Assembly: GCF_017348835.2 (NCBI RefSeq)
Contig: NZ_CP071375.1
DNA: 64,000 nucleotides
Source: Escherichia coli
GTDB lineage: Bacteria > Pseudomonadota > Gammaproteobacteria > Enterobacterales > Enterobacteriaceae
Strand: one strand, 5' to 3'
The translations under genes were made by a program, and so were the position numbers. Positions 12,950 to 18,472 of this stretch are shown here, in pieces. Each line of letters begins with the position of its first letter. Positions within the stretch are counted from its first letter, which is position 1. A model generated the notes under the pieces. It made no database searches. It saw only the letters and a list, made by a program, of their open reading frames with translations, and was not told the DNA's origin.

Positions 12950-14302
12950 ATGACTAAACACTATGATTACATCGCCATCGGCGGCGGCAGCGGCGGTATC
13001 GCCTCCATCAACCGCGCGGCTATGTACGGCCAGAAATGCGCGCTGATTGAAGCCAAAGAGCTGGGCGGCACCTGCGTGAATGTTGGCTGCGTGCCGAAAA
13101 AAGTGATGTGGCACGCGGCGCAAATCCGTGAAGCGATCCATATGTACGGCCCGGATTATGGTTTTGATACCACTATCAATAAATTCAACTGGGAAACGTT
13201 GATCGCCAGCCGTACCGCCTATATCGACCGTATTCATACTTCCTATGAAAACGTGCTCGGTAAAAATAACGTTGATGTAATCAAAGGCTTTGCCCGCTTC
13301 GTTGATGCCAAAACGCTGGAGGTAAACGGCGAAACCATCACGGCCGATCATATTCTGATCGCCACAGGCGGTCGCCCGAGCCACCCGGATATTCCGGGCG
13401 TGGAATACGGTATTGATTCCGATGGTTTCTTTGCCCTTCCTGCTTTGCCAGAGCGCGTGGCGGTTGTTGGTGCGGGTTACATCGCCGTTGAACTGGCGGG
13501 CGTGATTAACGGCCTCGGCGCGAAAACGCATCTGTTTGTGCGTAAACATGCGCCGCTGCGCAGCTTCGACCCGATGATCTCTGAAACGCTGGTCGAAGTG
13601 ATGAACGCCGAAGGCCCGCAGTTGCACACCAACGCCATCCCGAAAGCGGTAGTGAAAAATGCCGATGGTAGCCTGACGCTGGAGCTGGAAGATGGTCGCG
13701 GTGAAACGGTGGATTGCCTGATTTGGGCGATTGGTCGCGAGCCTGCCAATGACAACATCAACCTCGAAGCCGCTGGCGTTAAAACCAACGAAAAAGGCTA
13801 TATCGTCGTCGATAAATATCAAAACACCAACGTTGAAGGTATTTACGCAGTGGGTGATAACACGGGTGCAGTGGAACTGACACCGGTAGCAGTTGCAGCG
13901 GGTCGCCGTCTCTCTGAACGCCTGTTTAATAACAAGCCGGATGAGCATCTGGATTACAGCAACATTCCGACCGTGGTCTTCAGCCATCCGCCGATTGGTA
14001 CTGTTGGTTTAACGGAACCGCAGGCGCGCGAGCAGTACGGCGACGATCAGGTGAAAGTGTATAAATCCTCTTTCACCGCGATGTATACCGCCGTCACCAC
14101 TCACCGCCAGCCGTGCCGCATGAAGCTGGTATGCGTTGGACCGGAAGAGAAGATTGTCGGTATTCACGGCATTGGCTTTGGTATGGACGAAATGTTGCAG
14201 GGCTTCGCGGTGGCGCTGAAGATGGGTGCAACCAAAAAAGACTTCGACAATACCGTCGCCATTCACCCAACGGCGGCAGAAGAGTTCGTGACAATGCGTT
14301 AA
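12950..14302 (+). CDS. gor: glutathione reductase
   Basis: 450-aa [30 protein letters not shown]...[13 protein letters not shown] (redox-active disulfide motif). Confidence 0.95.
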
Positions 14303-14677: not shown

Positions 14678-15773
14678 TGTGTAAGTTCACAGAGATATTG
14701 CAATTGCCTCCGGATAAGTAAGGGGAGATTGCACTATGCAAATGCAGCATCTGATGGTTGGCTATCCTAAGTACTACCAAACGGCCGATTATGCGTTGAG
14801 GCTTTCAGTGATGGCTGATATAGCAACAATGAGAATGAAGGCTCTGCACTTCTGGGATAAACACGGTATTTCTGCAGCTTCTGAAGCCTTTGGCGTGTCC
14901 TGCCGCACGCTTTACTGGTGGCGTCAGTTACTGAACAAGGAAGGACCTGAGGGGCTAATCCCGCACAGTAAGGCACCTCTGGTGCGACGAAAAAAACACT
15001 GGCATCCCGATGTGCTGAAAGAGATTCGACGCCTCAGGACAGAGCTGCCGAACCTCGGTAAAGAGCAGATTTTTGTTCGCCTGAAGCCCTGGTGCGAACA
15101 GCGCTATCTGGCCTGTCCGAGTGTTTCCACCATCGGCAGAATGATCGCTGCCGCACATGATAAAATGCGGATGATACCTGTGCGTCTGGGATCGCGGGGG
15201 AAGGCACTGCTTGTCAAAAAGCGGTCTGCCAAACCCCGCAGGCCAAAGCACTACCGCCCGGTAAAGACAGGTGAGCTCATTGGGATGGACGCCATTGAGC
15301 TCAGAATGGGCGAACTGCGTCGCTATGTCATCACCATGATCGACGAATGCAGCAATTACGCGCTGGCGCTGGCTGTGCCGTCACTCAACAGTGATATCGT
15401 CAATCACTTCTTCAGCCGCGCAGCCCGGTTGTTCCCGGTCGGTATCAGCCAGATAATCACAGATAACGGAAAAGAGTTCCTGGGAAACTTCGACAAAACG
15501 CTGCAGGAAGCCGCTATCAAACACCTCTGGACCTATCCCTACACGCCAAAAATGAACGCTATCTGTGAACGTTTTAACCGGACGTTAAGAGAGCAGTTTA
15601 TTGAATTTAATGAGATTTTACTCTTTGAAGATCTGGCGCTATTTAACCAGAAGCTGGCGGAATATCTGGTGCTGTATAACAGCAAAAGACCCCACAAGGC
15701 GCTCGCACTAATGACGCCCGTGGAATATATTTTAAAAGAGAATAAAAATTGCAATATGTGGTGGACCCATACA
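14678..15773 (+). mobile_element. insertion sequence, single-ORF DDE (rve) transposase, IS481-family-like, about 1.1 kb
   Basis: Imperfect ~28-bp terminal inverted repeats (left tgtgtaagttcacagagatattgcaatt; right reverse complement tgtatgggtccaccacatattgcaatt) flanked by a 5-bp direct repeat tgtcc (14673-14677 and 15774-15778). Boundaries are uncertain by a few bp. Confidence 0.6.
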
Positions 15774-15818
15774 TGTCCTTGCAATAGTTTCAGTATGGTA
15801 TTAGCATTGATGCGTTAG
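14736..15818 (+). CDS. DDE-type transposase (integrase core domain; N-terminal HTH)
   Basis: 360-aa ORF with HTH (GVSCRTLYWWRQ) and catalytic residues consistent with D (GMDAIE), D (ITDNGKEF) and E (ICERFNRTL) about 36 aa later; the ORF reads 45 nt past the inferred right end of the element. Confidence 0.7.
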   Translation: MQMQHLMVGYPKYYQTADYALRLSVMADIATMRMKALHFWDKHGISAASEAFGVSCRTLYWWRQLLNKEGPEGLIPHSKAPLVRRKKHWHPDVLKEIRRLRTELPNLGKEQIFVRLKPWCEQRYLACPSVSTIGRMIAAAHDKMRMIPVRLGSRGKALLVKKRSAKPRRPKHYRPVKTGELIGMDAIELRMGELRRYVITMIDECSNYALALAVPSLNSDIVNHFFSRAARLFPVGISQIITDNGKEFLGNFDKTLQEAAIKHLWTYPYTPKMNAICERFNRTLREQFIEFNEILLFEDLALFNQKLAEYLVLYNSKRPHKALALMTPVEYILKENKNCNMWWTHTCPCNSFSMVLALMR

Positions 15819-15895
15819 ATGATGGCATTCTCACTCCAGCCAGAGCCACCAACTCTGGGCTGCAAAGTAAAAAACCGACGCAAAGTCGGTTTTTT
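15812..15895 (+). ncRNA. agrA: agrA-like small RNA (repeat copy with intrinsic terminator)
   Basis: Shares the gttagat...ctcactccagccagagccaccaactc...aaaaaccgacgcaaagtcggttttttt core with the downstream copy; candidate -35 ttgcaa (15779-15784) and -10 tagcat (15802-15807) with 17-bp spacer. Confidence 0.6.
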
Positions 15896-16042
15896 TACAT
15901 CCGGATTCGGACAAGGCTTAATATGACGATGACCCAGTGAAAGTATATAAATCGTCACTGCGATATATACCGAAGTGCCCCCTCCGCCAGCTGAAGAAAT
16001 CGCTAATTCTTGCAATGTTAGCCACTGGCTAATAGTATTGAG

Positions 16043-16127
16043 CTGTTAGATAAGAGCTCTCTCACTCCAGCCAGAGCCACCAACTCAGGGCTGGAAAGTA
16101 AAAAACCGACGCAAAGTCGGTTTTTTT
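16043..16127 (+). ncRNA. agrB: agrB-like small RNA (antisense regulator of dinQ)
   Basis: Second tandem copy; -35 ttgcaa (16010-16015), 17-bp spacer, -10 tagtat (16033-16038); about 33 nt (gttagataagagctctctcactccagccagagc) complementary to the dinQ leader copy at about 14510-14542; ends in hairpin + T7. Confidence 0.65.
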
Positions 16128-16161
16128 ACGTCCTGATTCAGACCTCCTTTCAAATGAATAG

Positions 16162-16241
16162 CCAACTCAAAATTCACACCTATTACCTTCCTCTGCACCT
16201 ACGCATTCGTTAAACCATATATGTTTTTGACTTATCCGCTT
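16162..16241 (+). promoter_or_regulatory. ars promoter/ArsR operator remnant (retains -35 TTGACT), downstream part replaced
   Basis: ccaactcaaaattcacacctattaccttcctctgcacctacgcattcgttaaaccatatatgtttttgacttatccgctt closely matches the K-12 Pars region as I recall it; similarity ends after ccgctt. Confidence 0.55.
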
Positions 16242-16242
16242 T

Positions 16243-16292
16243 GGTTTGTAACGCTGGCTGCGCTGGCGCTACGTCTCTCTTTCACTTTGTAA
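16243..16292 (+). pseudogene. arsB: arsB 3'-terminal remnant (last ~16 codons, ...FVTLAALALRLSFTL*)
   Basis: In-frame reading of ggtttgtaacgctggctgcgctggcgctacgtctctctttcactttgtaa ends in a stop 12 nt before the arsC ATG, the expected arsB-arsC arrangement; no arsR or arsB body precedes it. Confidence 0.5.
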
Positions 16293-16304
16293 TGAGATAC
16301 TGAT

Positions 16305-16730
16305 ATGAGCAACATTACCATTTATCACAACCCAGCCTGCGGCACATCGCGTAATACGCTGGAGATGATCCGCAACAGCGGTACAGAACCGACCATTATC
16401 CATTATCTGGAAACACCACCAACGCGCGATGAACTGGTAAAACTCATTGCCGATATGGGGATTACCGTACGCGCGCTGCTGCGTAAAAACGTCGAGCCGT
16501 ATGAGGAACTGGGCCTTGCGGAAGATAAATTTACTGACGAGCGGTTAATCGACTTTATGCTTCAGCACCCGATTCTGATTAACCGTCCGATTGTGGTGAC
16601 GCCGCTGGGAACTCGCCTATGCCGCCCCTCGGAAGTGGTGCTGGAAATTCTGCCAGATGCGCAAAAAGGCGCGTTCTCCAAGGAAGATGGCGAGAAAGTG
16701 GTTGATGAAGCGGGTAAGCGGTTGAAATAA
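16305..16730 (+). CDS. arsC: arsenate reductase (glutaredoxin-coupled ArsC)
   Basis: 141-aa ORF MSNITIYHNPACGTSRNTLEMIRNSG... with catalytic Cys12 context (HNPACGTSRN). Confidence 0.95.
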   Translation: MSNITIYHNPACGTSRNTLEMIRNSGTEPTIIHYLETPPTRDELVKLIADMGITVRALLRKNVEPYEELGLAEDKFTDERLIDFMLQHPILINRPIVVTPLGTRLCRPSEVVLEILPDAQKGAFSKEDGEKVVDEAGKRLK

Positions 16731-16778
16731 AGCGGCTATATCCCCCCCACAGGTTGTTAGAAAAGTGCGCTTTATTTA

Positions 16779-16880
16779 TGTCGGATGCGACGCTGGCGCG
16801 TCTTATCCGACCTACAAGGTTATGAAAATTCGATGAATTGTATGTTATTTGTAGGCCTGACAGGCGTAGCGCATCAGGCG
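16779..16880. repeat. REP/BIME palindromic units downstream of arsC
   Basis: tgtcggatgcgacgctggcgcgtcttatccgacctaca and tgtaggcctgacaggcgtagcgcatcaggcg. Confidence 0.7.
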
Positions 16881-17356
16881 ATTTTGCTATTTACACATTA
16901 CTCCCTGCGTGAGATTCCAATTATCGCGTCCAGCATGGTGTATCAGTGATCTGCTTAGTGATCAGCGATACAGTGCAGCAGTTTAAAGACGTACTGGATT
17001 ATGATTTATCAGTGCTTTACACAACAAATTATTCAATAATTATAAGATACCTTAACCCATTTTATTATTACACATCTAAAACATCACAAAAATATCATTT
17101 CACACACTATCGGAGAACATCATAACTTTTTAAAATGAGCGCTTTTTGATAGTTGTTAACGTTTTCTTTTACGATACTATCAATGCCCTTTTTTATACAC
17201 AAATATTACCGGGTGGAGATAAAAGGGAAGTCAAAGGTAATTATATCAGGAAGATATGACGCATGATATTTATTGTGCGTAGAAGAAAATCCATTCCTGC
17301 TCTAATTATCCAATTTAAAAATCTTAGCATAAAACAGATAATGAATAAGGAATGTT

Positions 17357-18472
17357 ATGTCAATTGACTTTACCCCAGGTGTGATAAATACATATCACGG
17401 CGATATTTATAACCGCACAACAGATACCGACAATGTTAAAACACCAGACACACCGATGTGGCCTTGTGATAATCGGGAAGAACAACAACCCATTAATTCC
17501 ACATTCTCTGGAGAAGGATACAACCCTGAACAATATGATTTAGCGCGGCAACACCTCCCACAAATTTATGCGTGCCGCACGAACACCAAATATACAGATG
17601 CAGACTACTCAAAAGTTGTGGCTCAACTTGTAAGTCTTATTACTAACATTGAATCGATAAGTTCGACACCACTTACGCGGCAGGCACAGGAAATACTTAA
17701 TCAAATTAATAACATTAGATACGAAAAGAACAAAAGTGCTGAATGTCGAATCATTGTTGTCGCTAATCCTAAACCCGACAAGGCAATCATAACTAAAATT
17801 AGCGTAGAAGAGGGAATACCAGTAAGATTCAGTGTCCAAACCATGTTTTCAGATACTAATTTTATTGCTGAACAACGAGCTGACTTACCGACTAATATAA
17901 AAGATATTCAAATCCTGTATCAAAAAATGACGAAGTTATATATTGAACACAGTGAAAATAAAAACAGGATGAAAGTCTTTGCCGGAACCAACTTTATTGA
18001 TTTCAATATGACAGGACAGAACCTGTCCGGGTTCGTTCTAACTTTGTCAAGGTTTTATTTCGAAGATCTACTTAATATAAATTTCACTGACGCAAATTTA
18101 GGTGACACTATTTTTTCACATAAAGAACACCCTACCCCCAAATTATATAAAGACGAACAATATCTTGACAAACAAATCGAAGGTTTATTTTCAACATTAT
18201 TAACCATTAATGACAACTTTTTACGAGCAAAAGCGGAAATTGCTTCGACAATAATTAAATTCTTAGAGGCCAGGATAACCAATCTTTCATACAATGACAT
18301 ATTAAAATATCAGCAAGAATTCCAAAAACAATGTTATAAGCAAGTTAAAGCCTTTACGACACTCTCCCGATACAATAAAATTCAAACATGGGCAGAAATG
18401 TCTGAATATCAATTCGAAGTATTTCAATACGAGACGCTTAACCCAAAAAAATGTCACGTACGCCTTATTTAA
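17357..18472 (+). CDS. AT-rich hypothetical protein with a pentapeptide-repeat tract (intact yhiS-like gene)
   Basis: 371-aa ORF; residues [46 protein letters not shown] place F/L/M at every fifth position for about 9-10 repeats, usually preceded by N/D (A[DN]LXX pattern). Position between arsC and slp matches yhiS. Confidence 0.6.

Follow-up and report, generated by a model that had tools for sequence, protein, structure and literature searches.

As read from its sequence, the arsC-only arrangement in the window (the whole 64-kb stretch of Escherichia coli DNA that was analysed) is a deletion scar from which arsR and arsB have been lost. We give a probability of about 0.9 to an overall explanation in which the arrangement is an ars deletion allele that arose in one old event and then spread, with arsC intact and, we infer, still made. 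The arrangement reflects a loss and not an ancestral arsC-only state, because the tail of arsB and a fragment of the ars promoter (Pars) are retained. The deletion is a widespread allele that is not peculiar to the source genome, and the window is a member of a known arsC-only allele class, a common and already published polymorphism.

The order of the elements around arsC in the window is gor (12950-14302), dinQ, an IS481-family insertion, two AgrB-family small RNAs, arsC (16305-16730), a 371-aa yhiS-like ORF, slp, and dctR. Two pig isolates, PE164 and F2_81, have chromosomes that match the stretch from 15820 to 16800 at 100% identity, and the PE164 annotation of this stretch gives dinQ, an IS481-family transposase, arsC, a pseudogene, slp, dctR, chuS, and chuA. 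In K-12 (strain EMG2), the order is dinQ, agrA, agrB, arsR, arsB, and arsC. The ORFs, the PE164 annotation, and the Rfam match to AgrB together place the ars locus of the window between gor-dinQ-agr on one side and the yhiS-like gene and slp on the other. A second full-length AgrB-family match in Rfam, at 15815-15898, corresponds to the position of agrA. The breakpoints were mapped base by base against K-12, with both flanks read, and against four other intact loci, which resolved the locus into the following features.

16046-16129, plus strand: AgrB small RNA, the left neighbour of the ars locus (Rfam RF02891, 108.1 bits against a gathering score of 40, model positions 1-84 of 84).
About 16100-16127, plus strand: AgrB intrinsic terminator hairpin, a predicted terminal hairpin followed by a U-run (z = -4.4).
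16201-16232, plus strand: retained ArsR-binding site (operator) of Pars, identical by alignment at 29 of 32 positions to the MG1655 site (PMC9134189 SI).
16227-16232, plus strand: -35 box of Pars, TTGACT, identical at 6 of 6 positions to the published -35 (pattern search).
16233-16241, plus strand: the 9 nt of the Pars spacer next to the -35 box, TATCCGCTT; agreement with K-12 is complete up to 16241 and ends there, which sets the left breakpoint after 16241.
16242-16244, no strand assigned: junction bases TGG, assignable to neither flank (the corresponding K-12 bases are CGA at the left breakpoint and CTG at the right one).
16245-16292, plus strand: 3' remnant of arsB, the last 15 codons, FVTLAALALRLSFTL, with the TAA stop, in frame and matching K-12 arsB codons 415-429 with one G>A.
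16250-16255, plus strand: candidate hybrid -10 box, AACGCT, 17 nt past the retained -35 and with TGT before it, proposed from the sequence.
16293-16304, plus strand: native 12-nt arsB-arsC spacer, with the ribosome-binding region of arsC, identical to K-12.
16305-16730, plus strand: arsC, encoding an intact glutaredoxin-dependent arsenate reductase of 141 aa (NCBIfam NF007456 and TIGR00014).

The left flank (16106-16241) aligns with the K-12 sequence that begins at the agrB terminator and stops 9 nt beyond the -35 box, 4 of its 136 nt being mismatched (97% identity). The right flank (16245-16304) aligns with the 3' end of K-12 arsB plus the 12-nt spacer and has a single mismatch over 60 nt. 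Collinearity with K-12 arsRBC extends through the arsB tail, the spacer, and arsC. In the window, 199 nt separate the agrB terminator from the arsC ATG, versus 1,883 nt in K-12; the net loss of 1,684 bp comprises the -10 box of Pars, arsR, and arsB codons 1-414. Inspection of the K-12 breakpoints revealed no microhomology or repeat. The first-pass annotation had read the stretch as an agrB terminator followed by the Pars operator, the -35 TTGACT, and a few bases more, then a deletion of about 1.7 kb covering arsR and arsB, with an intact arsC 12 nt after the arsB stop, and the alignment bears out each of these points. Two details needed correction: the arsB tail is in frame as described, but it consists of 15 codons plus the stop instead of about 16 codons, and the deletion, which had been called clean, has K-12-like flanks on both sides but carries the TGG that belongs to neither of them.

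A tblastn search of the 64-kb window with K-12 ArsR, ArsB, and ArsC recovered only the 15-codon ArsB tail and the full-length ArsC, with no ArsR homologue better than E = 0.03. The window thus contains arsC without arsR and arsB, and the earlier description of an operator lacking its cognate repressor stands, there being no other ArsR or ArsB homologue within these 64 kb. That arsC alone represents the ancestral state, with arsR-arsB inserted in other lineages, is a merely formal alternative to loss that nothing in the sequence favours and to which we give negligible probability. The last 15 arsB codons in frame, together with an ArsR operator and a -35 box, can be understood only as the remains of a once complete operon, and Sütterlin et al. 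(PMC5923176) likewise conclude loss, from phylogeny. We consider the ancestral reading refuted because the arsB tail and the operator lie inside the arsC-only allele itself.

In the published annotation of MG1655 Pars, the ArsR-binding site is ACACATTCGTTAAGTCATATATGTTTTTGACT, the -35 box is TTGACT, and the -10 box is GACACT (PMC9134189 SI). The window retains the operator and the -35 box. The native GACACT is absent 17 nt past the -35, where the arsB-derived AACGCT is found instead, and ArsR is not encoded in cis, as arsR has been deleted. The ars promoter had previously been described as truncated; the retained operator and -35 box agree with this, to which it must be added that the -10 box is also lost, leaving half of the core promoter. 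Because of this further loss, the question becomes how arsC is transcribed at all, beyond derepression. The operator reads AAACCAT at a position where K-12 has AAGTCAT. Decay after the deletion was rejected as the origin of this difference, since the arsRBC-intact strains O157:H7 and 222 have AAACCAT too, and by this sequence comparison the variant is an ordinary polymorphism. A 23-codon fusion ORF, MFLTYPLWFVTLAALALRLSFTL followed by a stop (16220-16292), has its ATG within the operator and continues into the arsB tail; it is probably meaningless, and most of it lies upstream of any start from the putative hybrid promoter.

To determine the frequency of the deletion, a 186-nt query centred on the junction was compared with 5,426 complete E. 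coli genomes, and a genome was counted if the query matched in one piece. The junction was present in 1,111 of these genomes (approximately 20%), including Nissle 1917 and O145:H28. About 1,050 of the best matches fall in a band of 80-90% identity, in which every sampled row was a full-length match to the junction, and the other carriers, about 60, are closer to the junction type of the window. The arsB core (851 nt) is missing from 1,096 of the 5,426 genomes, even at blastn sensitivity. If the arsB-less genomes are nearly all carriers, as expected, almost all carriers of the junction are without any arsB. For PE164, a composite query consisting of the junction region of the window and the reverse-complemented arsB core, applied to the chromosome only, matched at two places. 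Local BLAST showed that cross-matches between agrA and agrB yield extra places of this kind; the second place is best read as such a cross-match, and the PE164 chromosome hence as having no arsB elsewhere.

The junction was read in 12 carriers: the window, Nissle 1917, five more strains of the Nissle sequence type, O145:H28, A30, Combat11I9, 33F4, and Res13. All 12 agree in their breakpoints, in the TGG, and in a G>A 6 nt into the arsB remnant, and the junction ...CCGCTT-TGG-TTTGTAAC... is identical in the window, in the B2 strain Nissle 1917, and in the 10 other carriers. Neither the TGG nor the remnant A was found at the junction positions in any of the intact loci read. A base-identical junction in every carrier read points to a single origin, and the absence of TGG and A from the intact loci, together with the lack of microhomology, points to one illegitimate-recombination event behind all carriers.

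Comparison of the sequences on either side of the junction revealed a mosaic. A single nucleotide separates the arsC of the window from that of strain 410, which is arsRBC-intact, whereas 16-23 nt separate it from the arsC of other carriers, and the junction regions of the window and of the Nissle type are only about 90% identical. This difference of about 10%, and an arsC nearer to K-12-type alleles than to those of other carriers, could suggest that the same deletion occurred repeatedly at a hotspot of recombination, with separate events in the Nissle-type lineage and in the lineage of the window. However, the exact breakpoints, the unassignable TGG, and the G>A 6 nt into the remnant are common to all 12 carriers, the K-12 breakpoints offer no repeat or microhomology that would make the event repeatable, and mosaic flanks are expected from recombination around an old allele. 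We therefore regard repeated origin as very unlikely. Under the single-origin reading, the mosaic flanks imply that the deletion allele is old and that both sides of it have been moved or overwritten by homologous recombination. One old illegitimate-recombination event cut out 1,684 bp, from 9 nt past the Pars -35 to arsB codon 414, and the allele afterwards spread by descent and homologous recombination; it is now found in a large cluster including Nissle 1917 and in a minority of other lineages, such as the pig strain of the window.

Carriers of this kind have been described previously. In the passages considered here, Sütterlin et al. (2018, AAC 62:e00209-18, PMC5923176) report arsC alone between gor and slp in isolates of phylogroup B2 and in some of phylogroup E, and arsenite MICs below 128 mg/L in isolates lacking arsRB, with isolates carrying arsRBC or arsRDABC above this value. 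Among ST131 isolates, those without arsRB are reported to have the lowest arsenite MICs (PMC9731454). According to this published work, arsC-only carriers lack both an arsenic response under ArsR control and efflux through ArsB, and their arsenite MICs are the lowest (PMC5923176, PMC9731454), which does not sit with the phenotype having been called unpredictable in the first-pass annotation. The base-level junction is not spelled out in these passages of the two papers.

The locus of the window resembles the B2/E arsC-only locus in its position (from gor, dinQ, and agr to the yhiS-like gene and slp, with chu genes downstream) and in its arsC-only content, and its junction is base-identical to those of Nissle 1917 and five more strains of the Nissle sequence type. 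It differs from the Nissle type in the flanks at the junction, at only about 90% identity, and in its K-12/ST410-like arsC; moreover, the window has both agrA and agrB where Nissle has one agr copy, and it carries the IS481-family insertion upstream. Relative to K-12 arsRBC, the sequence upstream, from AgrB through Pars to 9 nt past the -35, is 97% identical and the ArsC protein is 98.6% identical, whereas the -10 box, arsR, and arsB codons 1-414 are wanting from the window. Relative to the arsRDABC operon of plasmid R773 and its chromosomal counterparts, the window has an ArsC of the same glutaredoxin-coupled family with the R773 catalytic residues, and it is without arsD, arsA, arsB, and arsR. 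The deletion allele explains arsenite sensitivity and arsB-negative PCR in a large share of clinically important E. coli, among them ST131, strains whose allele is of the Nissle 1917 type, and some further lineages such as O145:H28. Its relevance to metal co-selection studies and to the choice of arsenic biosensor chassis is already in the literature; what is added here is the exact junction, its frequency in complete genomes, evidence for a single origin with later recombination into divergent backgrounds, and a testable idea of a hybrid promoter.

Analysis of the encoded protein indicated that the ArsC of the window belongs to the arsenate reductase family, scoring 304.9 bits against NF007456 (cut-off 242, residues 1-141 of 141) and 137 bits against TIGR00014 (cut-off 106). 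Cys12 and the triad Arg60, Arg94, and Arg107, which we take to be the catalytic residues of R773 ArsC, are present in the ArsC of the window and in all 17 comparison alleles. A 141-aa arsC ORF with all four residues was found in each of the 12 carriers and in 6 intact-operon strains. Among the 12 carriers, the variable sites of arsC comprise 39 synonymous and 15 non-synonymous positions, with pairwise dN/dS values of 0.03-0.2; the Nissle-type sample alone, with 5 synonymous and 3 non-synonymous sites, has little power. Between the window and Nissle, identity is 85% in the 48-nt arsB remnant, where the differences change amino acids, 94.6% in arsC, and 97.2% in gor. The differences in the remnant are consistent with neutral drift, and the overall pattern fits an arsC that would be retained and constrained beside a drifting arsB scar. 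The case for constraint is weakened because arsC alleles have been exchanged with intact operons, and dN/dS was rejected as conclusive proof of selection after the deletion, as the alleles swap between intact and deleted backgrounds. As a separate observation, the diversity of arsC within E. coli is very high, with dS of about 0.19 between alleles versus a total divergence of 2.8% in the neighbouring gor, and arsC alleles do not follow the presence or absence of the arsRB deletion.

In the proposed mechanism, arsC is still made and is probably transcribed constitutively and weakly. Transcription would start from a hybrid promoter in which the TTGACT of Pars serves as the -35 box and, after a 17-nt spacer, the arsB-derived AACGCT with a TG in front of it serves as the -10 box. 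The lack of ArsR would leave the operator empty, and some arsC transcripts may come from read-through of the agrB terminator. At the position of the candidate -10, intact arsB has GACGCT, which is identical to the native GACACT at 5 of 6 positions. The hexamer in the carriers was probably GACGCT originally and is now AACGCT, which matches 2 of 6 consensus positions and keeps A2 and T6. The ArsC produced would reduce arsenate with glutathione and glutaredoxin, and the resulting arsenite would leave the cell by non-dedicated routes only.

The opposite view, that arsC is a silent and decaying relic that is not meaningfully transcribed and looks intact through recombination with arsRBC-intact strains, has in our estimate an appreciable minority chance. 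It draws on the deleted -10 box of Pars and on the strong hairpin of the agrB terminator upstream, and a consensus scan for promoters and terminators over 15800-16900 called none, although this negative is uninformative because the same scan misses the native Pars and the agrB terminator of K-12. The single nucleotide separating the arsC of the window from an intact-operon allele points to a recent allele exchange, and the 5 synonymous and 3 non-synonymous sites of the Nissle type are not clearly a sign of purifying selection. Against the relic view, the arsC ORF and its catalytic residues are intact in all 12 carriers, from very different backgrounds, while the arsB remnant gains amino-acid-changing differences. 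The -35 box also lies at the native 17-nt spacing from a hexamer that has A2 and T6 and a TG just upstream, and arsC was present in all isolates of Sütterlin et al. (PMC5923176).

Literature searches found no report on arsC transcription in any carrier, and the expression matches in the literature on uropathogenic strains concern yffB, an ArsC-family paralogue, and not arsC. The question of why the reductase is kept without the pump was already raised by Sütterlin et al. (PMC5923176). A further-reaching proposal, to which we give only a small chance on the sequence patterns described, is that a repressor-free, constitutive hybrid promoter drives arsC and that selection keeps the gene in more than 1,000 pump-less genomes for a use independent of ArsB. 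If true, such a use might be, for example, low-level arsenate handling or a redox role independent of arsenic.

Several further rearrangements were observed around the locus. On the 3' side of arsC lies a second scar, at 16874-16943 (minus strand) and 16974-16996. In strains such as 222, O104:H4, and KK05-19, arsC is separated from the yhiS-like gene by a permease and a regulator of the ArsR/SmtB family; in the window, K-12, and O157:H7, only the last 23 or so codons of the regulator (E = 8e-5) and a 23-nt fragment of the permease are left, with about 1.6 kb missing. The yhiS-like ORF (17357-18472, 371 aa) is open in the window and gave no NCBIfam match; the same position holds a frameshifted pseudogene in the PE164 annotation and is split by IS5 in K-12. 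In the small-RNA region, AgrA and AgrB are both retained in the window, and a single agr terminator and copy is found in the carriers Nissle 1917, Combat11I9, 33F4, and Res13; this difference in agr copy number among carriers of the arsRB deletion represents a second, independent rearrangement in the small-RNA/toxin (dinQ) region.

The IS481-family insertion (14678-15773) separates dinQ from agrA and is located some 40 nt upstream of the AgrA-type RNA. The element is flanked by a 5-bp duplication, TGTCC, where K-12 has a single CGTCC, and its terminal inverted repeats start with TGTGTAAG and TGTATGGG. An insertion at the same site was found in 7 of the 5,426 genomes, one O103:H2 strain among them. 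The transposase ORF (14736-15818) extends 45 nt beyond the end of the element into the flank, and in other copies of the element, at other sites, the match likewise continues for about 12 nt past the end, which hints at a target preference.
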